NCBI GenBank assembly: GCA_051294905.1
Contig: CM119371.1
Coordinates: 24,740,001-24,804,000 of the forward strand
Direction of reading: 5' to 3'
DNA length: 64,000 nt
Source: Botryllus schlosseri
Lineage: Eukaryota
This document shows, one piece after another, positions 1,075-62,705 of this stretch (positions are counted from its first letter, which is position 1; the number at the start of each line of letters is the position of its first letter). Under the pieces are notes generated by a model that was not told where the DNA came from, did not search any database, and saw only the letters and a program-made list of their open reading frames with translations. A program made the position numbers and the translations under genes.

Positions 1075-1442
1075 CAGTGGTTCTCAACCTTTTTTGACTC
1101 ATCGCCCCCTTTTTAAGCTCAACGCCTATCATCGCCCCCCTAATTTTGTGAACCGAAAAATCGGTATACAAACTGTAATCACCGGCGTGTTGACTAAAAA
1201 AAAAGGTCAACTTTAACGTTCGATGTCGAATTTTACACTTTTGCAACTGAATTTTCATGGGATGACTGAAAAAAAAGTTCATTTCTCCGACTTGTCTCCA
1301 ATATAGCCGTTTTAACGTATCATCGCCCCCTTCGCTATTTTCGCCCCCCCCCCGTCGCCCCTTTGTCCATTTTCGCCCCCCTATCGCCCCCTTTGTCATT
1401 TTCGCCCCCCTGGGGCGATATCGCCCACGTTGGGAACCACTG
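1075..1442. mobile_element. hAT-type MITE nested in family A
   Basis: CAGTGGTTCTCAAC...GTTGGGAACCACTG; perfect TSD gactagag (1067-1074, 1443-1450); subterminal tcgcccc repeats. Confidence 0.92.
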
Positions 1443-1450
1443 GACTAGAG

Positions 1451-2624: not shown

Positions 2625-4271
2625 GACTAGTGCGAGGCACGATGATAGTAGTAAATACCATCATTATACAGACTCACACCCTTAAGTTACTATAACGCAA
2701 ATTTTTACCCCTTCAAGGGTTATTTATTTACGGACCGCAAAGAGTATAATTTATAATAATGAGTCGGCACAGTGCCCTAGCTATCTGTTAATATGTTTGT
2801 AATATTTGTTGAAGTTATTGCAAACAAACATGTGATAGTTTGCACATATCCATGGTCATTGTGTTGGGTACTTTAGCCAATAAGCGAGGCACGCACAAAA
2901 TATGAATTTATCATGAGTATGCAAGGCAAGATTTGTCTGACTGGTTTTTCTGGAAAATATGGTCGAAGACCATTGGGCTGTGCAACGAGCGAGTTCAGGC
3001 CTATGCGACTCATTCATGTCGAGGCTACCCCTTTCTGCGTCGGGACACATGAAGACGTCAAGTTTTGGCCAACAAACCGCTGATAAAATACGGTGCCGAT
3101 ACATAAGCGGCGACAAAACCTTTGTTCAAAAATGACCAATGATGGATGGCCGAACTTTTCAATATGGATATGCTCTGTTGTCAGCACGGAATAGCCCTAT
3201 TCTTGCAATCTGAGTATACAGAATAGTACAATTGCGACACGCAGATGAATTTAATACCCCCTAATTTGAAATCGCGTTCGTCAGACATGTTTTGTGTTGG
3301 GTAGAATTGTGGTGTGCGCGTTCTGTATGTAATAGCCTACATGCCCGTAAATATTAACATGCAACTATAATATTAACAATGAATTCGCTCTTATGGGTGA
3401 GGCTCGGATCGCGAGATGCCACAAAAACTCAGATTTTGGTGGTAGTCTAAAAGCTGCTTTACCGTTATTAAACTGTTGTGCATTCTCAAGTTAGATTGAG
3501 CTAAAGAGCAGAACACAAAGTATCGTGAGTTTATTTGCACTTATCATATACTCGCGGGACAGAAGTTGGAGCAACGTATCATAAGGTAGCGAGCTCTACT
3601 GTGCCTACTCTCCTTGACCGCTTTAAACCTTATGTTCCAAGACATAAGGCAGAAGCCTCAACACAAACATGTGGATTTTTCATCCCTTCGACAAACTTAA
3701 GCCTCTGGGACATTTGTGTCAGCTCTCAAAAACGATTTCTGCCAGCAAGCATTTTCCCTCACGAAAACTACGCTGTATTTGGGATAGGAGTGCGGAACAG
3801 ATTTTAAGACCTGGCCATCCAAGCACTAGTAGACGTCATTGTTAAAAACCCAACAACATGGTTTTACCGAGATGTAATTTGGTGAAACAGTTGAAATCAA
3901 AACGAGCGAAAAAAGGTGTCTTTGTAATGAGTCACTTGACAGCTTAAGTATCTTCATCTCATTTTTGTACAACAATTTTCTATTTGTTTGTGCGAATGAA
4001 TTTTTTTTTAATGTGCGAACGGAGCTCAAAAAGGTTGAAAAGCACTGCACTAGTATTCCCGATTATCGCGCACTTTGACTTGTAAATGTACATTTGTACA
4101 ATGTGCAATGTGCAATGTGTAATTGTGCATACTACATACTTCAATCCGTTATGTGCATGGCGCATTGTGCATAGCACAGTGTTTAATTCGATTATTCGAT
4201 TTGTTTAGACCGGAAAATACTATATTCAGATAAACTTGATCGGCACCGGATGGACTGGTAACGAGTGCACC

Positions 4272-4700
4272 AATATTATTAATATTATTATTATCACAAA
4301 CATGAGTGGTGCTTTTCGCCATTTATGGCCTTGTGCGCCACGGTCGTCAGGAAATTCAAATCAAGCAGTAACTAAATGAACTTATTACAACTTATCACGA
4401 ACTCAGCGACGGCAGTGGACAATTGCGATAACGAGAGTAGGTTGCGTATGGTGAACGGTACATGTAACTGATTGCAATAGGTTATTAAAAATGATCGATG
4501 AAAGTCGTATTTTATGCACGATATCAAAAAGTGTTCGACTGTTTCGATGACATCGCATTCTTCGCACATCGGAGAGTCCGAGCATAGTAGTGCACCAATA
4601 TCGAACGTCAAAACATTGGCCATTTGGTACAAATCGAATTTGCCATATTGCTCTTACTACAGTTACACTTGAATCATAATCGCACATTTAAGAATTGAAT
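4272..4700 (-). mobile_element. 3' fragment of a non-LTR retrotransposon (C-terminal CCHC zinc knuckle, I-group-like)
   Basis: Minus ORF 4372-4632 contains DSPMCEECDVIETVEHFLISC, typical of a LINE ORF2 C-terminus; it is followed by a short 3' UTR and a (taa)n-like tail near 4272-4295. Boundaries are approximate. Confidence 0.75.
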
Positions 4701-4871
4701 TGAGCTGTATGGCTTAATGTTAACGAGTACAGTACCAATGTTAAAACGTCGCATCAGAATTTAATGCTGTACGTACACAGCGGAGTAAAGTGCGTTCTAG
4801 TGCAACTATGATGTTATCGACAATTGACAAGTATTCATTATGTCGTCACAAGCGGGTACGGCGGCACCTAT

Positions 4872-6051
4872 TAGAGATGTACGGATCATGGTTTTTTGGG
4901 ATCCTGATGCAATCCTGTTTCATGATATCATAATCCTGATCCAATCCTGATCCTGTAGCAATCGCATATTTCAGTATCCGAGTCCAAAAATAATCCTGTT
5001 TTCAAAAAATTGCTTCATTATCCATGTTACTATGAGCAGGGAAAATATTATACTACCATATGTGATTTCTGGAAAAAATAAACATCATCGGAAGCTGAAG
5101 GCAGGATGAACTTACAAAATAATAGTAGTTTATATACTGCAAACAGTCAAATGATAACTGAAATTGTATTCAAGAATTGCAACAAGGTCATCGTTAAGAT
5201 ATAGACTGAGAAAGAAAAAATTATGACAAAATCAGCCTGACCTCACAGGAAAACATCGTCACCAGAACTTTTCACTACAACTAAAGCATCTAAGCTGTCA
5301 GCTGAGAGTAAGGATCTTTTTTTGTCAATAGTATTCCCACACAAACTGAACGCCTTTTCACTATGGATGCATTTGATGCAGCAATACTGATTTTGATTAC
5401 CCCAACAGCAAGTCTACTGAGATTTGGATACCTGGCAATTGCACTGGGATTCGTCCAATACTTCAGTAAGCCGTTGTCATCTCCATTCTCTGATTCACTC
5501 AAAGGACTCTTAATCTAATATAGTCTTCGATCTCATCAGTTGAACTTTGAGATGATAATGACAGCACAAAACATACACAGCATATTTCCCATCTTGCTTT
5601 TCTACCAAATGTCGGAGCTGTCACCAAACATAACTTATCGTCTTTTTGACGGTATTTTCGTCAGCCGTGACAACGTCATTCCGAGCTATCAATTATAAAA
5701 TCTCTGACATTCCGAATAGCAAATGAAACCCAAATGATATCAACCAACATCAAGATCTCAAGAACTCAAGACGTCTCTGCCGCTGAAATCTCCTTAGCGG
5801 AAAATATATATAGTCAGACTTTTACATGTAAAAAAGATAGTTTATAAACTCCTAGAAGATAAGTTTTACCTTTTCTGAATCTAGACATGTTGGACATGAT
5901 TCTAAACTGGTTTTCGTCAAAATAAAAATCCTGTCCTGATCCGGATCCGGCAAAACAGTAAAATTTGGAATCCGGATCCAATCCTGTTGCCTAAAAATCA
6001 CCCGGATTTCTGACCTGTTAGAATCCAAAATCCTGATCCTGTACATCTCTA
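4872..6051 (-). mobile_element. hAT deletion derivative with a dimerisation-domain remnant
   Basis: TIR TAGAGATGTAC / GTACATCTCTA; perfect TSD gcacctat; atcctg subterminal repeats; minus ORF 5290-5502 LLKYW..YPNLSRLA..ASNAS resembles the hAT C-terminal dimerisation region. Confidence 0.92.
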
Positions 6052-6437
6052 GCACCTATGTCTTAGTCAGGGTTGTAACCGAGCCACAAGGCTCCGAGTC
6101 ACAAGTCCACTTGGTGGTATGATAGAAGAAAGCTCCGGAGCCGGAGCTGGAGCAATGCAAATTTACGGCGGCTCCAAAGCCCTGGTTGTGTCACAGTCTC
6201 CAGTTTCAAGTTCAAAATCCCCTATACGTTTTTCCGAGACCGAATTTCCAAGACTGCTATCCTTAGTTCTTCAAAGATCATTAGAAATGATGTTTTGAAT
6301 TCAATATGACAGGCCCAATCTATGAGATAACAATTGCGTATGTGTCCGAACTCGTTGACCTTTCCAGTTATAGGCTTACGCAATCTCCCGAGTTCTAGTC
6401 ATTTCTGCAGATAATTTAGTCAGGTCAAGTGCGAACA

Positions 6438-6989
6438 TGAATCTTGTTGAATCTTTGCTCCGTTCCCCGTTAAAGCAGTTTCCTTTAGAACGAAAATTAC
6501 AGGTAAAGCGACTAGGTCTTTTTCAGCCTAGCAATTGTCCATTGATCCAATCGTACGCCGGGTGAAATCGCTTTGGTTGCCTATCACCTGACCGAAACAC
6601 ACCAGGATCGTGTAGGAAACACTTTCGGACGGGCTTAGAAAAACTAGGGCCAATCGATTTGGGTAATCTCCACCATGAAATCATAACGCATGCAACTAAG
6701 GATGCCCTGATGATTGATTCGTGGCATAGGGTCGATTCTTAGTTCACGTACTTTTTGTAAAAATTATCCTTTGAATAAAAAAAATGAATCATTTTTTACC
6801 ACACTTCATGTCACGGCTCACCGGCAAACTTCTCGCGGCACCTACGTTAAAATCACTGTTGTCGGGAAATTCAGGTGACCATCATAAAATTACTCTTTCA
6901 AGTTGGAAAACGCCACTGTGACGTAATTTTGATAAAATGTCGCTTGTAGCCCTTGTCCCACCACTCGATATTGTCACGAGCCGCCACTG
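6438..6989 (+). mobile_element. Degraded hAT relic (ZMYM1-like N-terminus and right end)
   Basis: 6438-6560 reads MNLVESLLRSPLKQFPLERKLQVKRLG, resembling the N-terminus of ZMYM1-like hAT transposases; the end ...AGCCGCCACTG (6989) and ~120 bp before it resemble 32312-32431. Confidence 0.5.
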
Positions 6990-7051
6990 TTTTCTAGCCA
7001 TTCGAAGACACAAGAGATTAAATCGACTTTAAGCTACATTTATTGTAAAGT

Positions 7052-9042
7052 CAGTGCTTTTCAACCTTTTTGACCTTCATTCGCACTTTTTTTAGAAAAT
7101 AAATTTCATTCGCAGAAGCCACCGAAAGTTGTTATACAAAAAGAAAATGAAGATATTTAAGAATATTCTGTTCAGATGTGCAACAAATTGGCTAGTATAG
7201 CTTTTAGGCCATGAAGTGTCTCATTAATAAGGCAACTCTTTTCCCTCGTTTTGATTTCAACTATTTCACTAAAGCGCTTCTCGGCCAAACAAGTTGTTGG
7301 ATTTTGTATAATAACGCCTACCATGGTGCTTGGATGGCCAGGTCTTAAGAACTGTTCTGCACTCCTATCCAAAACACAGCGTATTTTCCACGAGTGAAAA
7401 ACGCTTGCTGGCAGAAATCGTATTTGAGAGATGACACAAAGGTCCAGGAGGGTCCAGTTTGTCGAAAGGGTGAAAAATACACATGCTTATGTAGAGGCTT
7501 GTGCCTGATATCTTGGAAAATAAGTTCCAGTAACATCAAGGATAGGACGTACATTAGAGCTCGCTACCTTATGATACGTTGCTCCAACTTGTGTTCCATT
7601 TTTTTCGGTTTCCCATTTCCTGTCTCGCGAGTATATGAGAACAGCAAATAAAGTCACGATACTGTATGTTCGGCTCTTCAGCTAAATTTAACTTGAAAAT
7701 TCATGACAGTTTAGTAACCTTAAAGCAGCTTTCCAGACTACCAACAAAATCTGAATGTTTGTGGCATCTTGCGACCCGAGCCTCACCCATGAAAAGAAAT
7801 TCATTTTTAGCATTACAGTAGTGTGCTACGATTTTACGGACATCTATGACATACAGAACGCGCACACCACAATTCTACCCAACACAGCTCTATAACATAT
7901 GTCTGACGCACGTGATTTCAAATTAGAGTGAAGTAAATTCCTCTGCGTGTCGCATTTGTACTACTGTCTACTTAGATTGCAAGAACGGGACTACTCCGTG
8001 CCGACAACGGGGTATATCTATATCGAAAGGATTGGCCATCCAATGACGGCCATTTTTTAACCAAGGTTTTGTCGCCGCTTATGTTTTTGTGACCGCATTT
8101 TTGGGACCGGTTGGTAGGCAAAAACTTCACGTCTTCATGTGCCCCGACACAGCTAGGGGTTGGCCTCGAAATAAATGACTCTCATAGGTCTGAACTCGCT
8201 CCTTGCACACCCCAACACTAGTTCATCCCAACGGTCTTCGACCTTGTTTCCAGAAAAAACAAACGGACAAATCTTATTATGAATTCAGACCAAAGGTCGG
8301 CTGTTTCTCATGCTAAAGCCATATTTTCTGCGTGTCTGTCTTATTGACTATAGTACCCAACACAGTGACCTTGGATATATGTAAAAACTATCGCAGGACT
8401 TTTTGCAATAAATTCAACAAATATTACATACATATTATCAGATAGCTCTCGCACCGTATCGACCCAAAATTATACTCATGCGGTCCATACTTGAATAACC
8501 CTTGAAGAAGTAAAAAATGTGCTTTACAGTAACATGCAAATGTGAGTCTGTAATGATGGTATTTACTACTATCCTCGTGCCTCGCGCTAATCGAAGAGTG
8601 ATTACGAAAATATGATGATTGTTTAGCGAAAGAAAGCAGAAAGCCAATTTGACGTCATTTTTTCAGCTTGACGCTGGCTCAGACGGGCTCGTATACTGTA
8701 TGTCTGCAACAACACCAGCTTCCCAACCTGGTTTTTGATTACGTAATAATTAAAGTGTGAAAATATTAATTCACTACGGCTTGTGAGAGTTACGATGAGT
8801 GGTGCGTCGAGTTAAACAAGTTTTTACAATTGCGCCTCAACTATACAGCAGTTACACTGCCTTGAATTTCCTATAAGGCTTATTTAAATTATTCCACGTC
8901 AGAATAATTAACAATTATTCACAATTTTCATTCGCACCAATTCGGATTTTTCATTCGCACCATTCGCACCACCTTCGTCATTCGCACTGCATTTTTTTTC
9001 ATTCGCACCAGTGCGAACCGTCACACAGGTTGAAAAGCACTG
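7052..9042 (-). mobile_element. Non-autonomous hAT-type element (family A), second copy, inverted
   Basis: TIR CAGTGCTTTTCAACC / GGTTGAAAAGCACTG; flanked by ttgtaaag at 7043-7050 and 9043-9050; reverse-complement similarity to 616-4047; lacks the two nested inserts. Confidence 0.9.
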
Positions 9043-9084
9043 TTGTAAAGCAATATAGGTTATTGTAATAATTCTGTTTCGAAG

Positions 9085-9200
9085 CTCTCAACAGTTAAAG
9101 GAACGCTGTGAAAATGTAAACCGAAGGTTACAATGAAATAGCAAATTCACTCAAGTTCATCGGTTGCTAAAAGGTGTGCTTCAAAATTGAGAATTTACGG
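9085..9200 (+). pseudogene. Decayed copy of the 168-bp LRR-like exon
   Basis: After ...tttcgaag it reads LSTVK/(frameshift)NAVKM*TEGYNEIANSLKFIGC*KVCFKIENL, alignable to the exon at 23817; the upstream flank (7011-7050 joined to 9051-9084) resembles 23740-23816. Confidence 0.7.
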
Positions 9201-11754
9201 TGGGGTAGCCCAATATATCAGATTCTTAATTATAAATGAGCTTAGTATTTAATGATAGGAAAGCTGGTTCTTATTGTGCATAAAGCAATGATCTCGCTTC
9301 CACATTACGAGGTTGAAATTGCATTATTGTGGTCTGATGCAAACGTAATTTGAACATAACAGTAATGGCTCAAATTCTTTGAGACTTGAACAGAATAAAT
9401 CGACAAAATTCCAAGATATGATGTGCAATGTAATTGACATTGTCAAAACTTGAATCGACGCTGAAACTCTGTCGACGCGAGTATTTCTGCACTTTCAAGC
9501 ATCAGCTATTCTCAAATATAACAGTTAAATTCCTCTGATCTGGATATCAGTTTCATTGTGCGACAACCTCTCTATAGTTCTGCTTCACTTGATAAATTTA
9601 TTCTCCGTGTCAATTCAACTTGTGGATTCTATACTAATATCATCGTGATCTATTCCCGAGATAATATAACTCGATGAACGCAATGTAAATCTCACTGGCG
9701 AGGCGATACTGTGTATAGCACTGGGACTGTACATTCGCATGAACTGGCCAATTAGTTCAAACTACTTGGTTTCTGATAAGAACGACCATCTTCGACTATA
9801 TCATACGACGAACTCTTGGATTGGCCCATTACACACGTTAGTGTCAATTGGTGTTTACCTGCCGTGTGTCGCAAAGAGAATCACAGATTACGAGTAATCT
9901 ACAACCTGAGATGGAATGGGAGAAATGTCGACACGAAATCCTATCAATTGGACAATCTATTTATCCCAACGCCAGTTAAAACCTAATTACTTAGTACGGT
10001 AAACCGCATTGAATTCAGAAGTATACGCGCAGCATTGATAACACAATGCTTCCCGTCAATACTTTCTGCAATTTCATTGTACTTGCTACGCAACGTGACC
10101 CGGGATCTATTATAATTTTTTGTACGAGGAGTTGGTGTTACTATATCATGTGATGAGACATATCGATCGGTTATAATTATTAACTAGAAGTGCACTAAAC
10201 TTTGAAAGACACCACTACCAGCAGGTTTACCGATAGCTGCTTGTGAATCGAAGATACGAAGCATGCTGGAACCATAGTGTTCTAAGGTGGTGTGAACACT
10301 AGCGATCGTTCCGTTTCGGCAGTTTGGGAAGGCCGTCGCCAAGATGCATTCTCTGCCGCTTGAGCATGGGGAAAAGTTGCGTTCTAATCAGATGTAGGAA
10401 GTTAATTGGTTAGCGCGGTATGTTTTCTGTGCGCAATTCTTGATGATGAGATATCAATTTATAAATTAAGATGTCAAATTTTGCTGCCGGTAAGGTTTTT
10501 CAGGCAGTGTAAGCGGCATGTTATCGTGTTACATTGCAACTGGAGTAACCTGTCATAGCTTCCTTCTTAATGTTATCGTTATCATGCTATATGTACGCCA
10601 ACATGTCTTTTGTATCATATCAGGCAAGTAATATAGCCGACGATTCTATAATTTTTTTAAATGCGAGCTGTGACTGCAACCAAGAATCCTATTCGTACAG
10701 TCAGACACTTCAAAGAATTGCAAAGTTCAAGGAATTTATTGAAGAGCTAGAAGGTGTGGTGCAATATGCTTATCGGATAGACGAATTCCATGCCATTGAT
10801 CGCTTATGAGAGGAAATGAATTGATTTAATCAACAGAAAGGCCCATTACTCCTTAATTACTGATGCTTAATGAAGACATTTTGCGGATGCATTCATCGTG
10901 GAAAAATAAATATCTATGCCGGAAGTAACTGACGACGAATTTCTTTTATGGAAGTCAGGGTTCATCTTAACACTTTGAATTGAAACCGTTTGGACTACAA
11001 AATGTCAAAATGTGAATGCATGACTATGGTCTGGCACAAAACCGTGGCTTTTTACTCAGCAAGAGCAAAGCAAGCTTTACCTTGAAGCATTCGTAATATC
11101 TTAAAGATACTGATGAACATAATGATGATCCTCTTCATTCTCTACTTCTAATCTCTAAAGCAATTTCCAAATATCTATGCTCATTAGAATCAATGAAAGA
11201 CTTATGGAAATAGAGGCGAATGAATGTGACAATCTTCTACATCTACACTCAAGTATCCGCATCCGCATCTGGCTAGTTTGAACTGTCAACCAAAACGTGA
11301 AAGCTCAAATCACATTTATTGAATCACCAATCAGCTTTTGAATAAACTTTATTGCATAGTGGGTGCGGATTTCAAGAAGAGAACTGCAAGATTGATATCA
11401 CTATCTTCACAAGTGAATTCACGCAGATGTAATTTGTATTACATGTATGAGTATGCTGAAAGGCTACTATCATGGCTTCAAGGCAGAGATTATATTGCAT
11501 GTTGTTACCATGGTAATTCCTCTTGGGAAATGGATTTGCAAAAACATATTTCAGCACGTATGTAGTAAATGCTTTCATTCTCATCACTTGAGAGATGAGA
11601 GGGTGTCTCTAATCGCAGGTCTAGCGGTATAGGTCTTCTTGACATTTTTCATAGTCATACGAACAAGACTTCTAAGTGATGAGCTTCCAACTAGAATCAC
11701 TTTATAGTTACCTGTACTCTATTGTGATAGCATTGGATCAAGCACCAGTCATGG

Positions 11755-12657
11755 CAGTGTTGGGATGACTCGAGTCACCTTTTTCGTATGACTTGACTTG
11801 ACTCGAGTCACTTTGCTAAAATGAATTGACTTGACTTGACTCAGCGTACCAGAAATGTGGATTGACTCGTGACTTGAAGCAAAATTCACGAGTCAATTTC
11901 AAGTCATCAAATAAACGGTGTTGATAAAAGTCACCGTATCTTGCATATGTTCAGATTGTTTGCAAAACGTTGGTGTAACCCGTGCGAGCGACCAATCATT
12001 CAATGATCGTGTGTTTCATTGAGCCTCCATTGTTTTCACACAATTAAATTGACCGCAAACGAAGTGATCGAAGCTTAAAAGCTTAAATTGTCGTAAACTA
12101 TAGTGGTAAAGTAACATATTGGCAAAATGTCTATTTCTGTTCTCTGATCTTACCTTAACCAAACCTCTTCTTCAATTGAAACTGAATTCGAATATAGTTT
12201 ATATAGTTCTCAACCATTGGCGCAGGCTCTAATTGTATCATATCAATTTGTAAATGGGTAATGTATTTCATCTTGCCAATTCGTTTCTCTAGTCTCTATT
12301 CTCTATTCTCTACGTATATGTGAGCGATACAGACCCTTTTTGCGTGTATATTTAACTCTATATTCGTTCATGGGTTCAGAATCAATGACCACTCAATCTG
12401 TATTTCAGACAGCTAGTAAATTACAATGACGCAATCATGTCTCATACTTCGAAAATGCAACTTGACTTGAATTGTGACTTGACTCGTGACTTGACTTGTC
12501 TTGCCTCGACTTGACTCGAGTCACCTCCAAAAATCGAGTGACTTGACTTGACTCGAGTCACCTTCGAAAATTGATTGACTTGACAGGACTCGAGTCAAAA
12601 TTTGCAATGACTTGAAATGACTCGTGACTCGAAGGTAATGACTTGATCCCAACACTG
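11755..12657 (+). mobile_element. hAT-type MITE (gactt/gactc-repeat family)
   Basis: TIR CAGTGTTGGGAT / ATCCCAACACTG; perfect TSD agtcatgg; dense gacttgactcgagtc subterminal repeats; inverted paralogue at 60515-61805. Confidence 0.93.
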
Positions 12658-13491
12658 AGTCATGGTTCATATTGGCTTTATTAAATATATTCAAGAGATA
12701 TTGCAACGAGTCAGCAAAATAGTTGAGAACAGAGACATACTCAGCGTTGCAAGTTGTACGAGGAAATTTCAATTAACATATCTATAAAATGTATGATACA
12801 ATCATAATGATCAAAATGCAATACTTCTTTTGAACTAATCTGACCAAAATTAATGCTCTTTTCTGCACAGTTTTGGACAATAGATTTATGCTGCGGAGCT
12901 CTAGCTCCCTCTCTCCTATCTGTATGGAGCAATACTACATCACGTGACTTATCGCATAGTTATAACCGAGCGCATATCGCATATCACCCCTTTTGATATG
13001 AGACTCCTGTACGCCGTATAACCTACTGCTTGAATTAGTAACCATCCGTACAATACATATGGAAAAGGCAATTGTCGTCTATTGAACTACCAGTCAAGAG
13101 CTACACGCAGGACGCTCGTACCCGCTACTGCCAGTCAAGTATATTGGAAGCCGCTATCCGTAACATACGGACCTGCTGTATATACCATCGCAGAATATCA
13201 GACGTACAGCTCCTTTCACCGCTTGATGCCCACGAGTGAATGACTTAGTTCAAACGAAAAGACTCTTCGCTACTCCATCAACGGATCATTAATACTCACC
13301 TGCGACGATACGGAAACTCACTGAGAACACCAGGACTGCATGACACATCCGGTATTTACCCTTCTATACGATTTCTGGAATTGTTTGACGGTCAGCAGTT
13401 CGCACATACCTTTCAGTTTAACCTTCAATGTTATTCATTCCATGCTTTTGCCAATTACCATTTTCCTAAATTTATTACGATATATATTAAT

Positions 13492-14955
13492 ATGGCAACC
13501 AACAGCAACACAGACGCAAGTGAAGCTCAAAAAATATTACATAGTCACGATCTTAGAAACCGCAGGGATGAACCTGCTACTGGATCCGGCCTGTCCGATG
13601 ATAATGTTCAAGCAAACATTGGCCTACTTCGTGAAAATCAAAATGTCGTTGTCATAACTCCCGAAATTAACGCGCCTGTCACTCAGACGGACGCCGAGGA
13701 TAATGATGAGGCATCCCGGGGCGCGAGTGGTGAGATTCCCCGGAATGCACCACCTACCCGTGATCCGGTTCGCACGAATTTAGTTGTTGAAACACACCAC
13801 CGTTGCGCTTCTCGCCAACGCGAGAACCGGCAGACTCGCTCGTTCGGCTTGACAAAGGAATATTGCGACATGTGTATTGAGGAAGCTGGACGCGCTATTA
13901 GTTCGTTTAAAGATGCAACTTTTGATCGAACGCGCCCGCTTTATACTTCATTAATTTGAATAGATTGTTTGAAAATTTCAAAATTACATCACAGTACGCG
14001 CGCTGTACATTTCTAGCGAGTGTTACGCAGATCGATGTGCGTATGTCGGTTGCTGAAGTAGACGATACTGATCCCTGGCAACCGGATTCCTTCGATATCG
14101 TGAAAACCGCGCTTTTAAAAGTTTTTCAAAAGAGCATTGATAGGGGGGGTCAAGATATTCGCACGCTTTATGAACAGAAAGGTCTTCTATTGCCGTTGCA
14201 AGCTCACGCCGCGGTAGTCAACTTCTACAGTTCTGTAGCACCGGCGCATCGCCCGGTTGGTCAAATGAAACGTATTTTCTTCAGTATATTGCCCGATTAC
14301 TTACGATACTCTCTGCTAATGCATTGCGAATCCGCTTCCATGAGCGGCCACATTGATTTCAGACGCTAAAGACGCTGATAATTCTCTACAACAATAATGC
14401 CTAACCTAACCTAATGCCTCCTATTTGCTGTTTGTCTTTGACTACGGAACTAAACATGTATTTTTAAATGACTCGGGAAGTGAAAAGAGCTTGATAAAAG
14501 CCCTGACTGATTCATTGGGTAGTCCTTCGGTCGCGTTCCGTTGTCCCAATGACACAATACTTCTCGGCTATGGTCTATCGAAATTGACGCTGTCATTCGG
14601 TTCTTCGGTCCAATATACGTTCAGTTATGAGATCGCATCGCTGCCCTATTCCATAATTGGCGCGGGCTTCCTTCGCCATTTTGGTTGGAATGTAAACATG
14701 CGCGAGCGCACGATTAGGGATGAGCACAATCAAATAACGATCTAAGCCGTTTCGGACGTTCAGAAGGCAGGTTTGGTATCTAACGTGACATCATGTTGTA
14801 CAAATGACGGCATCGCATCACTGCTATCACGCCACCAATCACTTTTTCATTCTGAACTCGACAGACCTCCTCTGCATGGATTTGAATTTGATACACATCA
14901 CGCGTCATTTGTTGGATCGTTTATTCTGTCGATTCGCCTTACGCTATTGTACTAA
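13492..14955 (+). mobile_element. Ty3/Gypsy LTR-retrotransposon relic: gag (frameshifted) and aspartic protease
   Basis: ORF 14425-14745 LFVFD..FLNDSGSEKSLI...YSIIGAGFLRHF matches the Gypsy protease pattern (DSG motif, IIGxxFL); ORFs 13492-13959 and 13956-14369 are gag-like. RT motifs and an LTR pair were not found. The element may span ~12960-16580. Confidence 0.8.
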
Positions 14956-17900
14956 ACGGGTTACCTAAAAAAAACTAAGGATGACTGTTGTACACAAAAC
15001 TTCTACTTTCGGACGACGCTTGACGGCGCCACGGAATTTGCGAGAATATGATCCGTCATTCATTTTCGCAGAAAACTAGCTGCACATTTTATATCAATTT
15101 TTCCTCAATGACTTCGTCATTGTCTTGATGACAATAGCGTGGTCTCGGTTTTCTTTCATCTTTTGTTCTAACGCTATATTCATTATTCGACTTCGTTGCT
15201 TGAATTTCCATTGTGCAGATATGGTCGCCATGCAATTTTAGTGCATCGCTACTGATATCTGGTCACAGAGATCCGTGAAACATTTTTGTATACTCACGAT
15301 TATCTTAACATTGCCTATGCCCATTACAGCTACTTGGGGAACTCGTGAATTTGAAATTGGCTACGGTTGAAGTACGGGGTCTGTAGGTCTTCGCTTCCGC
15401 TCCCGGATCGTATATGTAATGCAGTGAGCACGGGGAAATTACGCTTCCGAGTAATTTACCTTGTACTGGCTTTGATATCTCGCCAAACCGTTTTTCGATA
15501 TGGGGACTGCTGGTGGGCGATTCAGCAATTCTAATGCGCATGGAATTTGTGATTTACACCCCTCCAGTTTAAACTCATACTATTTAATGTCACGATTGCA
15601 TAACGAAGCATAAGTAGAGTTCCGCCGACTTGCGTCTCGCCCGCGTGCCATGTTCTCGAAATGATCCACTGACCGGACGTTATCATACGGTTTTTGGATA
15701 AAATAATTATCCAGCGTTTATGCAAATTAGTCCTAGCACAAACTGTTCTTAAGGCGTATTCCACGGTCGATACGCCATTATTATTGATCAGCCTTCGAAG
15801 CACACGAAAGTAGCCGGGTGCACGTTTCCATTTGCGATATGTTAGGTGTGCGTGCTGTGATTATAACTTATTTGTTATTCCTTATCTATCGATTCATTAG
15901 CTGACCGAGTTATTGATTAGCCCGCGTCGACATTGCGATTTGATATCGACACTCGATTTAGTGCGCCAGCACAATGCACGTGTTTCGACATGTCTTCTTG
16001 ACCCGTTTGATTTCTATTTCTATTCTACATCATGTATATTATGTCACCACTACAAGTAGAAGTAGTTGCAACATATAACAGTGCTAGGATTCCACCTACA
16101 GAGCTGAGCCGCAATCTGCTTCGCTGCCTACCATATCTGCATTTCCCAATTTTGTGTATACGTTTGCTTGCTACCAGTGTGTTTACCATTTTATTTTGCT
16201 CCCCTGTTGTTAGTATCCAATTTGCGACTGCTGCCGGCTTGTCTTACAATTCCAGAAACTCGTACCCGACATTCGTGCCGCCCCCACCGAGAGTCGCACT
16301 AGAGTACCGGATGCCGGAGACGCTCATACGAACTTTCACCTGCAGCCGATACCAGAAACTGCATCACCACTTCGAATTGGAACGCTACACCGATTGCGTC
16401 CTATATCCGATCGCGCGCTGGCTACGAATGCGTCTCGTACCAGAAGATTTTTACGGCTTCCGCGACGGTTTTCGCATTTCACGTAAGTCGACCACCTCCG
16501 CTCGAGGGTCGTGAAGAGACAGCTGCCACAAATGGACACGGGCAGTTCCCGCAGGCAGGTTCCCACCATCGGCGGTGTTATGAAATATTACGATGAGCAT
16601 TTGACATTGGTACAGCCCGGCATCCTCTCGACCCCACCACGCTATGTAAGAATGTAACTATTGGAATTCTTCAAAGGGCCAGTTTTCATTAAAATGAAGT
16701 TTTCTCATGTAAAAATTTGTCAGTTTATGAGGCCAAAAAGTTATGTTTCTGGCCAAACTACTTCGTAAGGACAGACAGTTCCGGCCAGAAATGAAGACGA
16801 GTATTACAATTCTAATATTATGTGGGTAAACACCTAGTTTTTATAGACTAGGTCAATCAAAATCAAGATTTTTAGGGTCAAAAATGAAAAAATTAATATT
16901 TTTTACATCAAAATCTTCCGTTTTTAAGGTAAAAAAATCGCCCTACTCATAACATTTAGTTAGTGGTGGTCAGGAACGAAGTATTTCTACATTTTCAAAG
17001 TAGGCTACATAAGTAAACGTTTGCCTATCTGCACTATTTATTCAGGTGGATATGTTTTGGGATACTTCCAGTTTTACCTGGAACAGTTTTCAGTCAAAAG
17101 TCCTTTTCACAATATGGATTTCGAAAAGTATAAATTTGATTTGGGAAAAGTTTGCATCACATTTTCAAATTTTCTTAAGAACCACGTGATATAGCCAGCC
17201 GTATCAAGGTAACTGAATAGATTTTCGAGGAATCTACCTGTAACATCATGCCGGTATTGAAATTAACTCAAATATTTTCAGCCGGCACTCTCGTCAGGGA
17301 AAACCGTCTGTAGTCGAGTAGATATTTACATCGTTATCTCTATTTCTACTTGAGTAGCAGGGCTGACTACTTTGTACACCTCTGCACACAGTACTTTAAG
17401 TACTGGGGTAACCGTATTTTGCATATGCTCTATTGATCTCTCTTTGAATTCCACTTGTAAGATGTCAGAATTTTGCGACAAATCTTCCCAACATTATCTG
17501 TTTAAAGCAGGGGAGCAACCGTTTTGCTATTCACGGCCGTATTTCGATTACTTATGTAGCCTACGACCGCATTCCAAGTCATGTCTATCAAATAGGCCTA
17601 CCCATGTTTACGGCCTCCAGCACATGAAAAACCTTACTAGCAGCACAATTTGACATCTTAATTTATAAATTGATATCTCATCATCAAGAATTGCGTACAG
17701 AAAACATACCGCGCTAACCAATTAACTTCCTACATCTGATTAGAACGCAACTTTTCCCCATACTCAAGCGGAAGAGAATACATCTTGGCGACGGCCTTCC
17801 CAAACTGCCGAAGCGGAACAATTACTAGTATCTACACCACCTTAGAACACTATGCTAGAACGTGAACTAGAATGGGAGTATTTTAGACTTGGAATCCTCT

Positions 17901-18681: not shown

Positions 18682-19964
18682 CAGGACCGTAACAGCACTT
18701 AGTCAGGCCCTACCCAAAACGTTGGTCTTGGGCCCCCATAGGGTGATAAACTGGACTTCTGGGGCGCTTCGCTTCCAGACCCCACCCCCAGGCTACACGC
18801 TGTTTACCGCTTCTTATTATCTAAATTGGGTGTCCGTTTCATGAGTAAGCCTATCTCGCCTGAACGCGTCAGGCCCGAAAAAATTCTATAATACATGATT
18901 CAATCGGTCAATATGATGGGGAATTGCATATATATTGCTACGAATTGTTATCCTCTCTCTGCTCACGTAATCACACGTAGAGCAGACTGAGGTGTGTTTG
19001 AAAGGTAGGACCACTCAATAATAATTAAACATCTTCGGGCGTATACCCGTTGGCAGGAACGAAACAGCACTTTGTCAGGCCCCCAAAAAACCTGGGTCTT
19101 GGGCTCCCGTAAGGTGATAAACCGACACAAGTTGTTCGCTTTTGCCACGAAACTATTTGTACTAGTTAGTTAGCAAGCGCTAAGCGCGAAAATTTTCGAT
19201 AATTCATGATAAAATCGGTCAATAAGATCGGGAATTGCATATATATTGCTTTCAATTTCTTGTCCTCTCTGCTCACGTAATTAGATGTACCGGTAGAGCT
19301 GAGTGAGGTGTCGTGGAAACTGTAGGGTCCGTTGGTATGACTCCGTAACATGATGTTACTTCGTGACCTCCTGTCTGCCTTATAAAAAAAAAATAGAATC
19401 CCCCAAACGTAGGCTACTAAACTAAAAGACGCACACGATTTCAAATTGGTATTTCTTCACTGGCATATAATTTTTCCCTGTGAGATAGTATTTGTCTTTG
19501 AGGTTCCAACTGTCAAGATAGGAACATTCGACACCAATCATTTAGGCGCCCATGGACAATTAAACCTATATGTATTTTGTACATATAACGAAGTTTTGGG
19601 TGATCATAAGGGCAGTCCTTTTCGGCCAAGGTTTTCTCGCTGTCGATCGTTCTGGCACACTTCTTGAAGTCACATGTTACATGGTCTAAAACTTTATATG
19701 TCTTGGTGCATCGTGTTGCGGTAATGGCCAACGCCTATATGCCCATTTCTAAAAATCTTGCGTATTTTTTCTTGGCGCAAGAGTACCCCCCAATCAAGAT
19801 ACTTGGCAACTAGAAATTTAGCGACGCGCGAAAATCTTTGAAAAAGTTGCATAAATTTTCAAAAAATACTCAATAATTTAATTCACGAAATAATTTTGGG
19901 CCACCTTCGAGCTCAACACCACCCCCCCAATTGGGGGGTTTGGCGTGCGGCAGTTACGGCCCTG
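18682..19964 (+). mobile_element. Non-autonomous hAT-type element (family B) with internal partial duplication
   Basis: TIR CAGGACCGTAAC / GTTACGGCCCTG; perfect TSD gttaagaa; homologous to 31091-32311 and, inverted, to 55404-56329. Confidence 0.92.
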
Positions 19965-31090: not shown

Positions 31091-32311
31091 CCACTCCCCC
31101 CCCAAAAAAAACGCTGGTCTTAGAACCCCCATATGTTGATGAACCGAACTTCTTGACCCCCCTCAGCCTCTTCGCTGTTTACTGCTACTTACTTAGCGTC
31201 TGCATTGGCGGCCGTTGGGGGGGGTCAGCTTATCTCGCCTAAACGCGCCAAGCGCGAAAAATTTCTATTATTCATCATGATTCATTCATGAATTGGTCAA
31301 TATGATCGGGAATTGCATATATGTTGCTATCAATTTTTATCCTCTCTCTGCTCACGTAATCAGATTTACAGGTATATATATCTGAGTGAGGTGTGGTTGA
31401 AAAGGTAGGACCCCTCAATATTATAATTAAACATCTTCGGGCGTATACCCGTTGGCAGGAATGAAACAGTACTTGGTCTGGCCCCGCATAAAATCTTAGG
31501 TCTGGGGCTCCCATAGGGTGATAAACCTACCCCCCATCACCTTGTTCGCCACGAAAATGAGTTTTACTGCCTAGTGAGTCAGCGCGAAAATTTAAAAAAA
31601 TTCATGATAAAATCGGTCAATAAGATCGGGAATTGCATATATATTGCTATCAACTTCTCATCCTCTCTGCTCACGTAATCAGATTTACCGGTAGAGCTGA
31701 GTGAGGTGTCTTGGACACTGTAGGGCCCGTCGGTATGACTCCTTAACATGATGTTATTTCGTGACCTCCTGTCTGCTATATTAAAAAATATAGAATCGCC
31801 ATAACGTAGGCTACGAAACTAAAAGACGCACACGATTTCAAATCGGTATTTCTTCACTGGCATATAATTTTTCCCTGTGGGATGATATTTGTCTTGTGAG
31901 GTTCAGATTGCCAAGACAGTATTTTGTATATAGCGAAGTTTTCGGTCAGCATTAGGGCAGTCCTTTTCGGCCAAGGTTTTCTCGCTGCCGATCGTTCTGG
32001 CACCCTTCTTGGAGTGGCATGTTACATGGCCTACTTTATATGTCTTGGTGCGTCGTGGCGCATTAATGGCCAACGCCAATATGCCCATTTCTATAAATCT
32101 GGCGTATTTTTCTTGTGTGAAGAGAACCTCAAAATCAATATAATTGGCAACTTGAAATCGCGCGCAGCGCGAAATTTTTTTTTGAAAAAGTTGCGTAAAG
32201 TTTCAAAAAATACTATAAAATTTATTCTAATTCACGAAATAATTTTGGGCCCCCTTCGCGCTCACCCCCCCCCCCAATTGGGGGGTTTGGGGTGCGGCAG
32301 TTACGGGCCTG
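31091..32311 (+). mobile_element. Family B hAT-type element, left terminus degenerate
   Basis: Long similarity to 18700-19964, including the internal duplication; ends GCAGTTACGGGCCTG. Confidence 0.82.
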
Positions 32312-54580: not shown

Positions 54581-55403
54581 ATGAACTGAAAAGTGTAACA
54601 TATTTTTCAAAGGCAATGAACCTGAATTGTAGAATTCGTTATTTCTAATTATTTCAACTAATCATAATACAAGTGAACCACTGTCAAGATTTCAATCATT
54701 AGATCATTTTCAATGAGGAGTTGACTAGCGACAAATGTATGAATTCATTGCGCTTCGTAAATAATGTCAGTATGCAGTAAAGCAAGGGTATGCAACTTAC
54801 ATATGTACTCATAGATTTACAATAACTTGAACTATAGAGTATGACTGGAGTGACGACTCGATTGTTCTCCCATTGTTAGCCGGCAGAATGGTCACGGTCA
54901 GATGGATGCACCCAAAACAAGATCGCTCAGTGCTTGTTTCAATGGCGTTCAAGGCGATTCGTCGTGTATTTCTTGAAATTGCGTCGGAATTAGTTATAGA
55001 AAGTTCAACATTTAGGTAGCGGTGGCGAGTCGTTATGACTAGTGAATAATACTGTGTAGCCTATGTTACATTTCTCACGAGATTGATGTGATATTGTGGC
55101 TTCGATCCTTTGTAGAGTTTGCTACGTATATGAATATAATGACGGAAGATACAGAATATCTGGTTCGTGTGCATTGGCTATTGTGAGATGAATTCATGGA
55201 AAGAAAGACTGAAGAATACTACAAAGTGAACAAGTGGAAAGATCTTGAACCATACCGATATGCAATTCACAATATCGTTGATTGAAAATATGTCCTATAT
55301 TAACTGCAGAAACTCGAGTATGAATATAACAAATAATATTGTAACTGTCTTGTAGTCTTATATAATGCCTGTCCGATAACCGCAGAAACTTGAGTATGAG
55401 TAG

Positions 55404-56329
55404 CAGGACCGTAACTGCCGCACCCCAAACCCCCCAATTGCGCAGGGCCCGAGCTCGAAGGGGGCCCAAAATTATTTCGCGAATTAGCATAAATTATGGA
55501 GTATTTTTCAAAAAATTTTCGCGCTGCGTGCGATTTCAAGTTGCCAACTTTCTTAGGTATTTGGTAGCCTACTCTTCCCAAGACAAAATACGCAGGATTT
55601 ATCGAAATGGACATATCGGCGAGACATTTAAAGTTTTAGAACATGTAACATGCGACTCCAAGAAGTGCGCCAGAACGATCGGCAGCGAGAAAACCTCGGC
55701 CAAAAAGGACTGCCCGCTTACGCTGGCCGAAAACTTCGTTATATATGCAAAATGCATATAGGTTTAATTGTCCATAGGCGCCTAAATGACTCGCGCCGAA
55801 TGTTCCTGTCTTGACAATCTGAACCTCAGAAGACAAATACCATTCCGCAGGGAAAAATTGTACGCCCGTAAAGAAATACCAATTCGAAATCGTGTGCGTC
55901 GTTAGTCTAGTACATTTGGGCGATTCTGTATTTTTTGATGTAACAGACTGGAGATCACGAAATGACATCATGAAACGAAGTCATACCAACGGGGCCGCCC
56001 GCCCGGATATGTTTAATCATTATTTACGGGCCCTACAGTTTCCAAGCCACCTCATTCAGCTCTACCGGTAAATCTGACAACGTGAACAGAGAGAACAAGA
56101 AATTGATAGCAATATAGGCCTATATGCAATTCCCAATATTATTGACCGATTTTATCATGAATTATCGAATATTTTCGCGCTTCGGGTAGACTCACCAAAC
56201 TGTGGCCCTTATTTCGTAACAAAAGCGAACAACGTGATGGGGGGAGGGCGGTTTATCACCCTATGGGGGGCCCATGACCAACGTTTTTTTTTGGGGGGGG
56301 GGGGCTGACGAAGTGCTGTTACGGCCCTG
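55404..56329 (-). mobile_element. Family B hAT-type element nested in the long-TIR element
   Basis: CAGGACCGTAAC / GTTACGGCCCTG; TSD atgagtag/atgactag; reverse-complement similarity to 19060-19964. Confidence 0.92.
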
Positions 56330-56591
56330 ATGACTAGAACAAGAGAATTGTGTAATGGTAATGTTCTGCTTGAGCTCGACTCACAATAGCCAGAGCTTAC
56401 TCCTTGAAAGTGTTCAAAATCGCACTTGAAGGGAACTCGTTGTCATTGCCAAGAACACAGGAAGACGTCTGCCGGTCGACATTAGTAGTAAGCCAATGCA
56501 CCACGTCAAGGTTTCGACCAACGCATTGGTTTCCTTTTTTAGGTAGAGAACCTCAATGTGGATAGGCAGCACTTGCCACAGAGAGAAAAAA

Positions 56592-57651
56592 CTACCATAC
56601 TAAAAGAGCATATTGTTCATTTTTTTTCAAGCCATCTCGCAAACTTTTGGGAAATATGTAGGACTTTTTTAGCTTCTCATGCAATGCAAACTTTGCAAAA
56701 TTGTGAGACAAGATGTTATTCAAGTGTCTCATTGCCTTGTCCATGACATCCTCAACCTCATTTAGGTCTGAGCCAGATTGAAGTGACACAGTATGAATTA
56801 ATTTGTTATAGAATGGATCACAGTGAATTGCGTCAAGTAGCCTACCCTGAAAAAATTGATCTTTTTCAGGGGTTTTGCCATTTCTTTACTGTGGATAACA
56901 TAAAAGCGGAGAACCATGCAATGAAACTGTTCAGACGGGCTCTTCAATCCACCGACATTCTTCTGCATCACTTTAATGAGGTTTCCCGATGGCGCTGCAG
57001 ATGTTAGGCATGTGGCAATTGCTTCGTTAGCTTGCTTAGAAATGGCTCCCAAAAGCACTCCACCAATATATTCAAGTATGTCTAAAAACATGTCTAAGTT
57101 TTTCCATGGAAAGGCAAAGTAGCAAAGGCTATTTACTTACCAGATTCCTTGCTGTTGACTCCTCCAATCTCTGCGATTGGATCCTGTTCTTTACCGCACA
57201 CGAGAGAATCAAACATCTTCAAAAGTAATACTGAAGCTGGTAATTGCGGCAAACCCAGCAACTTGTTAGCTTGGTGACAGATATTAGAATAATGTTGATA
57301 AAATCCGTCAACACCAAGTTTGCAATATTCAGAATGGAGTTGTTTCACCAATGCAACAGCTTTGGTCACGTCTAGTTCCTCGAATGATGGGGCGCATTCA
57401 AAGTATTTTTTGCTATTTACACAAGCCCTCTTCAAAACAGCAATTACAGCATCCTCAGATATATCCCAAGTACTGGTGGGAACTTTATGATTTTTGTAAT
57501 GTTTTTTCAGAGCTTTCACAGTCGGAAAGGATGCTTCGTATTCCTCACAAAGCACACCTTTCCAGTTATCGAGTCCTTCGAAACATTCTTCAATTTCCAT
57601 TTCAGTTAGTCCCTCCCAGTCATCCCAAAGTGATGCAGCTGAATCAGTCAT
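56592..57651 (-). CDS. Two-exon transposon-borne gene (~330 aa, one frameshift): degenerate C2H2 finger plus P-transposase-like C-terminal region
   Basis: Exon 1 is 57651-57141 (ATG start); a 59-nt intron gtaagt...tttttag (57140-57082) preserves phase (ES-D-ILEYIGG); exon 2 starts at 57081 with one frameshift at ~56850-56890. Motifs: CEEY-x12-HYKNH, LEYIGGVL, GGLKSPS, KSLRDGLKK. Confidence 0.68.
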
Positions 57652-58389
57652 GACACCGATTTTTATCCGTGACGAAATATGATCTAAATCTGGCGAAAAA
57701 TATAACAGAGGCTACACGGTATTATTCACTAGTCATAACGACTCGCCACCGCTACCTAAATGTTGAACTGTCTAACTAATACCCACGCAACTTCAAGAAA
57801 TAGACGAAGAATCGCCTTGAACGCCATTGAAACAAGCACTGAGCTATCCTGTTTTGGGTGCATCCATCTGACCGTGACCATTCTGCCGGCTAACAATGGG
57901 AGAACAATCGAGTCGTCACTCCAGTCATACTCTATACTTGAACTTCGCAAAATTGTAATTTGTCACATTCGTAGCGTCCGCGGTTTATGTTATTTAAAAT
58001 GCTGGTAATGTGTTTATGCAGGCCACAGTTCTAACGACAATTTGTATTTATGCTCTAGTTTCAAGGCATGTCAAGGCTGATGTCACGCAAATTAAAACAC
58101 ATGCTTCAAGTCGAGTCACTTCCAATTGTCTGATTTTGACTGAATTTCCTGTCACCAAATATTGATTTCTGTCTTTTGATGTAATATTATACGAAGGATT
58201 AAACACATATACGGATAGATCCCGACAAACCTTTCATTTCCCTACAACCAAGACTAAAGTAGTTGAAGGTTAATCATGTAGGTCGCAATAATTCTTTTAA
58301 CTTACTATACTCCATGCTGTCAATACCACGGTATTATAATTCAATGTAAGCGATGTTTATTGACTAAAATGCTGCATGAAGGATGTAGA

Positions 58390-58910
58390 CAATTCCTAAA
58401 ATATCTATGTAGAGTAGAAATAAGTATTCAGTCGTTACGGACTTGTTCGGCGTTAATACCGTCGAAATGGGCATCATTCATTTATTACCAGGAAATAACA
58501 TTTTATTCCATAAACTTCCAGATGAGCATGGGATATTTCTTATTTTGGAATTATTTGCACTCTTACCTACCAAACGCATGGTGGTCCACAGTTTCGGTTT
58601 ACGATCTACTTCCGAAACAGTCAGTATTGAGTGCCTTGTCATTCCAAAGCTAATGCACACTTTATTGCTGCACGTAAAAAAGATTTACTATGGCGGTCTC
58701 AAATGTAGCCCAAGTGGAATTCAGGCATGTATGAGGCAAATATGTTCACATACGCGCGGAGCGTCCGGTATAGTTTCACAAAGCAAAAAACATCATGAGA
58801 CATGTCCTACAGATTCCGGGTTACGTTCGATAAGGCATGACACAAAAGATCACATTACTGGGCACTGTGTATATTCTTCGGAAGGCCTTGAATGCACCAC
58901 TGGACTAAAA
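58390..58910 (+). mobile_element. Highly degraded 3' end of an RLE-type (R4/Dong-like) non-LTR retrotransposon
   Basis: One frame reads KNIMRHVLQIPGYVR*GMTQKITLLGTVYILRKAL, matching the QKxxLLGTxxILRKxL terminus of R4-like ORFs; GASGIVSQ lies upstream; (taa)n at ~59175. Confidence 0.6.
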
Positions 58911-60514
58911 TAACACTTGTGAAGCACAGCAGAATTTCTGTTATTTCGATTTTTCATTTTCAAACATCTCTACCGCTCTCTGTAACCCTTGCCAATTCTT
59001 CATATACTGCAATTCTGTAATCTGACTTCTCGATGTATTGCATAGGAATAACAATTTGACTGTATTACTGAAATTGTGAAAAATACCCCAATCTCGCCAT
59101 TTTCCTCTGGATGCAGGTTGCTCCTGAATTATATGTGTGTATTGACCAGTTTCTTACTGTCAATAAAGAAAAGTAATAATAATAACACATGAACCATACA
59201 AAATCGCTTTTCCTGCTTCCCGTACTGAAATTGTCGATAGGGACTTATGCTCCGATACAGATCGTAATAGAACTGGAAATGCAGTAACGGACTTCACCTC
59301 TACACTCTCACGTGACGACCTTTTCTTGGTTGATGGATTATTCGTAACAATTCGTAAATAATGATTTCTGTCGCAATTCTGTTACAATTTCACTCATTCA
59401 ATTATTGGGCGCTATCCAGAAAATAGCTTCTACTTTTTAGGATCAAAATTCTATTAAGTAATCAGTTCTGCATGGAGTGGCATACATATCCGGCAGTATT
59501 ATGATACAATAATCGTGACTTTAAAAAATCCAACATGAGTATTTTAGCGGTAACAAAGTAAATGATCCCAGCTAACCTACATATCATCCTAAATAATATA
59601 GTAATTCAGATACAAAACTATAACGTAGAGCTATGGGGACATTGCGAAGGGCGATAACTACGTCACAGAAATGACATGCATGAATATTCGTAGACTTGTG
59701 CATCATGTGTTTCGATGCAGAGTTACTGTAAACCGAGATTTCGAGGCCCATACAGAGGAAATGAACCGGGATTACTCAACTGTTTAGCATACGGCAGTAA
59801 CAAAATTTTAAGATTTGCTCAGGTCCGTTTTACCTATCACGAAAAACAAATATAATTTGGTGTAACGATATACAGAATTCCTCTCTTAATCTCCGATAGC
59901 GACGAATTGAAATGTAGATGAAAGCGTCACGACAGCCTGTGTCCATTGTTCTTGTATTTACACTCGTGTCACCATTCCTTAAATAGGAGGCGTGTAAATA
60001 GTCATAGTCGTATTTCGCGAAACTTCAAATATTGAGGGCAGTGCATATGCGCTATGGATATACGTATAATATAGATGTAGGTAAACCTATACTGTATATC
60101 GTAGAGATACGAACATATGATAGCAATCAGTTACGAAATAATTATTTTTGTGCAGTACCTGCACTGTGTTATATAAACCCAGTTTGTCAATGGACATTGA
60201 GTCATGCTAGCTGTTGTGTGTCGTGTTTAATCGGTACGTAATCTCTAGTCGATAAATTATCCAAGAGAGACAGCATTTCAATGGTAGTTTAGTTCTATAG
60301 TGTAATTATCATGGTCAAATTAAAATACGAAACCGTATCATCGCAGTGAAAATTTCTCCCAGAAACGATTCGGTTTTAATCATGCTTTGTAGCTATTCAG
60401 CATATCATTATTGGAAGTATCTTCTGTTATGTCTATTTACTTGAGTTAAAGCAATATGTGTTGAATAGCATGTTGACCTGACATCCCTACTGTAATTAGG
60501 AATACACCAGACGC

Positions 60515-62257: not shown

Positions 62258-62705
62258 TGATGTGGTCTCAAAATGAAGGTAAAAACGAATAAAAATTTTT
62301 GGCCGCAGCCATTTCCTTCAGAACGCCACCGTAATGGAGCTGCAATTTATTGAAATTTTCACAAGACCAGCTGCCGCGGCTGCTCAACCCGTTACATGGC
62401 ACGATGTCTTCATCGTCGCACTTGCTCGACGCGATATGGCAGTCACTCAGAGAACGAACTTTAGACACATTGCCTTCATAACATCGGCTGACAACTATCT
62501 AAAATTCGTTCTCTGCGTGACTGCCTAATCGCGTCGAGCAAGTGCGACGGTGACGGTATCGTGCCATGTAACGGGTTAAGCAGCCGCGGCAACTGGTCTT
62601 GTAGAAATTTCAATAAATTGCAGCTCGATTACGGTGGCGTTCTGAAGGGAATGGCCGCGACCCAAAATTTTGGTACGTTTTTACCTTCAATTTGAGACCA
62701 CATCA
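62258..62705. repeat. Near-palindromic foldback element (178-bp arms, ~92-bp spacer)
   Basis: 62258-62435 is the reverse complement of 62528-62705 with scattered mismatches; no direct TSD was recognised. Confidence 0.88.

Follow-up and report, generated by a model that had tools for sequence, protein, structure and literature searches.

What is a gene with no catalytic core doing as the only gene of a transposon with long terminal inverted repeats (TIRs)? The first-pass annotation of the window (by which we mean the whole 64-kb stretch of DNA analysed) had proposed such a gene inside a P-like element. Our analysis delimits this element at 54833-57936 (3,104 bp, ~3.1 kb), with a single gene inside on the minus strand. 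On balance, we consider it reasonably likely that it is a non-autonomous, multi-copy cut-and-paste transposon whose one gene encodes a separate P-type C-terminal domain (CTD) protein of 331 aa, equipped with its own zinc finger and predicted to act in trans on the tail-less transposase of two-gene relatives. The parts of this reading differ in strength: the gene is very probably a stand-alone P-type CTD gene, the element quite likely derives from a two-gene element, and a role of the product as a regulatory subunit, suggested by analogy, is plausible though somewhat doubtful.

Architecture of the element and its gene

The element and its gene comprise the following features (strand given where one applies).

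54826..54832: left target-site duplication, CTTGAAC (7 bp; a 9-bp reading is possible)
54833..55095, plus strand: left TIR, 263 bp, starting TATAGAG, 92% alike to the right arm
55096..55395, plus strand: left inner segment, with an inward-facing ATG (55130/55139) closed within a few codons
55404..56329: nested non-coding CAGG...CCTG element, 926 bp, between 8-bp duplications (55396-55403 and 56330-56337, one mismatch)
56592..57081, minus strand: predicted exon 2, CTD-like region, stop at 56592
56798..56858, minus strand: interval holding a frame-shifting 5-nt excess in the window copy, from contig overlap and open-frame count
56924..56959, minus strand: match to P-transposase CTD region 2 (GGL..PS..F), rank 1
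57041..57079, minus strand: match to P-transposase CTD region 1 (LEYI.G), tied top score
57082..57140, minus strand: predicted phase-1 GT-AG intron, 59 nt (GTAAGT...TTTTAG), donor position conserved in relatives, retained in contigs
57141..57651, minus strand: exon 1, 511 nt (170 codons plus 1 nt), encoding an acidic N-terminus, a C2H2 finger and a helical domain
57487..57549, minus strand: C2H2 zinc finger, residues 35-55; Cys38 replaced by Tyr in the window copy only
57676..57936, minus strand: right TIR, from arm comparison with 54833-55095
57937..57943: right target-site duplication, CTTGAAC, from flank comparison

The TIR arms were defined by comparing the window with itself, and CTTGAAC flanks them on each outer side, giving a 7-bp target-site duplication (TSD) read from one insertion site only. 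A 9-bp duplication around ATAGAG ends is also possible, because the match extends by one base at either end. Neither the gene nor the TIR recurs within the 64-kb window. Inward from the left arm lie ~300 bp of left DNA, the nested 926-bp element and ~250 bp of spacer, followed by the gene. No transposase frame occurs between the TIRs, where ~550 bp of inner DNA outside the nested element and the gene is full of stops. The annotation of the gene as non-catalytic is upheld. The region 55130-55290 and the spacer 56338-56560 (before the stop of the gene) are broken by stops and are possible 5' and 3' transposase stubs. The nested CAGG...CCTG element, which from its ends we take to be a hAT-like MITE, has ~70% alike copies at 18682-19964 and 31250-32311 and very high depth in the public runs.

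Several other features were seen in the window. A second long-TIR element at 10274-17854 has CATAG-ended arms of ~230 bp (94% alike) and a 7-bp duplication that includes one mismatch; its TIR is unrelated to that of the element described here, and it contains decayed coding-like DNA (~10600-11600), a nested repeat (~11760-12660) and frames at 13249-14369 that are presumably gag-like. A fold-back at 608-9050 has nested inverted arms running from 608/9050 inward to ~3755/7398 with 80-85% complementarity, and 208-bp inverted arms 32 nt apart and 90% complementary form a near-perfect hairpin element at 62258-62705. To the right of the element, a stop-free frame of 166 codons (58413-58913) had no Pfam match and may be the opposite strand of a decayed transposon.

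The gene begins with an ATG at 57651 on the minus strand, which was annotated as ~45 bp inside the right TIR and by our measurement lies 24 nt from the inner end of that TIR. The description of exon 1 (170 codons) and of a phase-preserving, 59-nt GT-AG intron behind it was correct (511 nt; phase 1; 57140-57082), and the exon-1 frame is one of only six stop-free frames of at least 150 codons in the 64-kb window. In exon 2, the two motifs singled out at first pass, YIGG and GGLKSPS, indeed share one frame (as ILEYIGG and VGGLKSPS). Spliced as it stands, the window copy encodes 264 aa and then meets a stop; an alternative frame reaches the stop at 56592.

Other copies in public sequencing runs

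Parts of the element occur in 20 of the 24 public runs listed, and four runs were compared at 85% likeness. Among these, X1 is a DNA run, while X7 and X17 are only guessed to be RNA and may include DNA, and rare forms drop out of contigs. The raw-read RNA run X21 yielded 0 aligned reads, an outcome that carries no weight. Summed contig depth in X1 (which is not a copy number) was 7,700-14,400 over the gene versus 9-37 on the flanks, the mark of a family with many repeats to which the gene belongs. Other copies of the element contain the gene. They also share its inner layout: the left inner segment 55096-55395 is common to X7 and X17 contigs, and contigs of both runs carry the CAGG...CCTG element at the same site, entering it by ~30 nt from either side. 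Because they enter it from both sides, the transposase-less form, nested MITE included, is not a private accident of the window copy.

The copies also clarify the broken reading frame. Among the contigs listed, three (two from X17, one from X7) span 56742-56888 with 142 letters and 5 gaps, and removing the 5-nt excess yields an open frame to the stop at 56592 and a product of 331 aa. The annotated product of ~330 aa therefore stands, while its attribution of the frameshift to a T run at 56850-56890 does not: the excess lies mostly below that range, in an interval that contains a near-tandem 5-mer (~56839-56848), and since the other copies are 5 nt shorter and lack the frameshift, a homopolymer sequencing error is ruled out. 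Similarly, the finger was called degenerate for its Tyr, which is true of the window copy; at position 57539, the letter giving Cys38 accounts for the entire depth in X1, X7 and X17, and the family finger is intact. The frameshift and the lost Cys are private to the window copy, since related copies lack the former and keep the latter. Of the 11 listed differences that fall inside the gene, with 128 further differences beyond the listing, 10 change an amino acid, in keeping with a dead copy that has drifted ~2% from the working family sequence. The window copy is slightly decayed and dead; the intact gene of its non-autonomous family may have been kept by selection or may merely reflect recent amplification.

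Exon 1 encodes a conserved protein

A search of 1.84 billion representative proteins with exon 1 returned five matches: P0001 (95%, a 172-aa read-through product), the RefSeq-annotated Styela clava model LOC120329584 isoform X2 (35%, 172 aa), P0003 (38%, partial), P0005 (31%, representing 19 near-identical members on long contigs) and a Mytilus protein matching over the finger only. The Styela match is consistent with a sea-squirt-like host. Mytilus MB21D1 matches (P0004, P0007-9) were set aside for this finger-only similarity. A profile search of 2,518 candidates (46-354 aa) added 27 proteins, including P0024 (78%); no full-length spliced relative was retrieved within that size range. A word-indexed search with the exon-1 protein confirmed none of 472 candidates (299-2000 aa), a count that carries little weight. 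The relatives occur across many contigs as sets of near-identical copies, often broken. Proteins P0005-P0053 are distant exon-1 relatives on long ENA contigs, many of them truncated, in at least two multi-copy families, a pattern expected of transposon copies in another animal genome.

The finger pattern C-x2-C-x12-H-x3-H, broken in the window copy, is complete in P0001, P0024 and reads of other copies, and P0001 matched PF13912 (E 8.4e-05), below the curated Pfam cut-off. The exon-1 model reached a pLDDT of 60 overall and 70-83 in the helical core, and Foldseek gave no match at E ≤0.001. In a wide fold search the top hits (Z 7.6) were helical bundles of archaeal virus coats, which we do not take as kinship, and the match of the helical domain to residues 617-726 of 6p5a_B (Z 4.9, rmsd 3.5, 86 aligned, rank 21 of 48,161) is within the range of chance. 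The ESM Atlas offered only weak zinc-finger-type or unnamed clusters. Profile comparison gave no support to exon 1 being a duplicate of part of exon 2 (probabilities of 0.2% and 1.1%).

The gene is no simple internal deletion of a one-ORF transposase, since it possesses a conserved N-terminal half of its own; such a deletion was an outcome that the first-pass annotation had named as fatal to its proposal. A more elaborate version holds that deletion and repair of a one-ORF P transposase left its tail behind an unrelated exon, the result then multiplying passively without any role. P copies with internal deletions and rearrangements are common according to the available text of two reports (PMC7776569, PMC4168063), which lends this version some appeal, but the start, finger and donor of exon 1 are conserved across ~five lineages, including another species. 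Because these features are common to so many lineages, a one-off deletion accident is unlikely, and we regard this origin as very unlikely.

Exon 2 shares motifs with the C-terminal domain of P transposases

Three consensus regions have been published for the P-transposase CTD, which is reported to occur only in P/THAP9 homologues (bioRxiv 10.64898/2026.08.31.747927). We scored these consensus motifs, ungapped, against stop-free windows in all six frames of the 64-kb window. Region 1 tied for first place at the very start of exon 2 (3 of 62,763 stop-free windows reach its score), and the region-2 core ranked first of 66,228, in the same frame, in the right order and 40 residues after region 1. 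The region-3 core (13 residues, ungapped) was unmatched, with ranks of 92 and 121 inside the gene. This test is partly circular, because the gene was picked for these motifs; yet the motifs are published ones and the ranks are window-wide.

Other searches with exon 2 were negative. Pfam gave no P/THAP9 CTD match for pieces of 78-111 aa, a sequence search of the PDB likewise returned no such match, and the ESM Atlas held no usable match to exon 2a. A word-indexed search for exon-2a homologues confirmed none of 314 candidates, which is weak evidence, and a fold search with the exon-2a model, itself poor (pLDDT 52), found no P match in the top 50. The resemblance to the P/THAP9 C-terminal region proposed at first pass is thus upheld by two of the three motifs, which score best in the window, and left without confirmation by Pfam, sequence and fold searches.

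Intron retention and transcription

Contigs from the public runs keep the intron: an X17 contig covers 56978-57521 without gaps, and in X7, contigs run into the intron from either exon. The spliced joint was not among the 15 joints listed, of 139, from the compared runs. Depth in X7 drops from ~200 to 5 above 57746, which hints at a transcription start inside the right TIR, though the near-identity of the two arms keeps this from being proof.

Relatives of exon 1 offer a second view of the same junction. Similarity ends at [KR]ES-G[RK] in 39 of 53 exon-1-related proteins (~four independent lineages), a pattern that suggests, as judged from the proteins themselves, read-through into the same G|GT donor. 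At that junction the RefSeq Styela model differs in its residue and continues for three more, as if spliced.

The working product might then be the unspliced 172-aa exon-1 protein, with exon 2 a relic or part of a rare, tissue-restricted splice form like that of P-element intron 3. This would account for the intron-bearing X7 and X17 contigs, for the read-through protein P0001 and for the 172-aa length of Styela isoform 'X2', and it has a precedent in the P element, where retention of IVS3 yields a repressor (as given in the available part of PMC7776569). Set against it are a textbook donor and acceptor, a donor position conserved even at 31% identity and an exon 2 that is open to 331 aa in other copies; moreover, DNA or passively transcribed copies may be present in the runs, and rare forms are lost from contigs. 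We find this alternative quite improbable. From the canonical signals and the donor position conserved in relatives, we infer that the intron is spliced and the gene predicted to encode the 331-aa protein.

Classification of the element

The element has no transposase with a THAP domain, an RNase H DDE core and a GTP-binding insertion, the requirement for a canonical autonomous P element, and it does not qualify as one. It fits a non-autonomous P-type derivative: besides the long TIRs, its CTTGAAC flanks agree with the 7-8 bp TSD of the superfamily (with the 9-bp reading possible). In a comparison with CA...TG and CATA-type ends, its TATAGAG termini are one letter off the CATA of Pdre2.

Mutator-like elements also have long TIRs, with a 9-bp TSD and, as in MuDR, two convergent genes. 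The present element could accordingly be Mutator-like, its gene a mudrB-type helper and its P-like motifs due to chance or capture. The TIRs are long enough, and the flanks allow for a 9-bp duplication about ATAGAG ends, in an element without a transposase by which a MULE could be recognized. But CTD regions 1 and 2 are at the top of the motif ranking for the window, the YATA ends match Pdre2, and 7 bp suits the neighbouring CATAG-ended element better than 9 bp does, making a Mutator affiliation most unlikely. We also think it highly improbable that the gene is cargo, either captured from a host or a domesticated CTD gene: Styela clava does have a RefSeq-annotated relative and host genes often contain C2H2 fingers, but the relatives are multi-copy and often broken, the ATG is 24 nt from the TIR, and the CTD is reported only in P/THAP9 homologues (bioRxiv 10.64898/2026.08.31.747927).

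A putative two-gene ancestor and its missing partner

Under the preferred reading, that of a P-type derivative with a stand-alone CTD gene, the parent element would have carried two facing genes, one starting in each TIR. The left gene would have encoded a transposase without a tail and would have been lost from the left half, where the MITE now sits; the inward-facing ATG to the inside of the left TIR is possibly the 5' stub of this lost gene. The product of the remaining gene would combine the finger, the helical domain and the CTD.

No partner transposase was found, and no related locus appeared in the sequence collections scanned; the TIR pattern hit three loci in metagenome contigs, all chance matches inside prokaryotic genes; and protein scans of viral contigs and genome contigs confirmed 0 of 15 and 0 of 204 stretches, respectively.

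Work on fused CTDs suggests what the free protein could do. The fly CTD contacts strand-transfer DNA yet can be deleted without loss, the CTD is dispensable for excision and integration, and deleting it from human THAP9 lifts integration by ~60%, marking it as inhibitory (bioRxiv 10.64898/2026.08.31.747927). The CTD protein may thus bind DNA via its finger and CTD and join the transpososome in trans as an auxiliary subunit, tuning or damping the integration step without being needed for cutting. By analogy, because the fused domain is dispensable for both steps and inhibitory in THAP9, an auxiliary or damping role would be likelier than an essential one. A bolder proposal, which we think unlikely, is a 'tail-only' satellite: a split P transposase would have dropped its catalytic gene and kept the CTD gene under selection, hundreds of copies would supply a diffusible subunit that biases or switches P-clan transposition, and splicing of the 59-nt intron would decide between a finger-only and a finger-plus-CTD product.

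Novelty and implications

The literature searched, mostly at abstract level and outside most subscription journals, held no description of a stand-alone P CTD gene. A P-type transposon with a separately encoded CTD gene, as predicted here from sequence, is likely undescribed in that literature; Repbase or Dfam, both outside the search, may contain a catalogue entry. The role of the CTD in P transposase and human THAP9 is unsettled, and a natural version of it that stands alone, is conserved and has a zinc finger of its own provides material for a direct add-back test in trans. Such a gene also speaks to the ways in which transposases acquire or lose regulatory domains, and a family amplified with only a CTD gene raises the question of whether a subunit without catalytic activity can be of advantage to the element that carries it.

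Comparison with known systems

The canonical P element encodes one multi-domain transposase with the CTD fused, truncated forms of which repress, according to the available text of PMC7776569; zebrafish Pdre2 starts with CATA, as stated in the accessible part of PMC10983969. With the Drosophila P element (87-kDa transposase, PDB 6P5A/6PE2), THAP9 and Pdre2, the system described here shares a TIR element with a short TSD and ends that are CATA-like but for one letter, the CTD region 1 and 2 motifs and an intron just before the C-terminal part. It differs from them in that the gene lacks the THAP, HTH, RNase H and GTP-binding parts and in that a separate gene encodes the CTD-like region, preceded by an acidic N-terminus, one C2H2 finger and the helical domain. 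Its TIRs measure 263 bp versus 31 or 13 bp, and its TSD 7 rather than 8 bp.

Galileo, a member of the P superfamily with long TIRs and a 7-8 bp TSD, resembles the element in its long TIRs, a 7-bp TSD and many non-autonomous copies with nested elements; it has a one-ORF transposase, and no separate CTD gene is noted in the available portion of that report (PMC4168063). Unlike those of Galileo, the TIRs of the present element are not internally repetitive. The KP and 66-kDa P repressors are likewise non-catalytic proteins that come from non-autonomous copies, and suggest possible damping in trans. The parallel with KP drawn at first pass fits only loosely, however, in that these repressors are truncated transposases retaining the N-terminal part, whereas the gene described here is separately built and keeps the C-terminal end.

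Two-gene DNA transposons include MuDR (mudrA/mudrB), PIF/Harbinger and ProtoRAG. All three resemble the proposed system in having a non-catalytic partner gene that faces inward from a long TIR, and the gene layout of ProtoRAG is convergent in the available account of it (PMC7204232). In those systems the partners are unrelated to the transposase, whereas the partner described here looks like a detached transposase domain.
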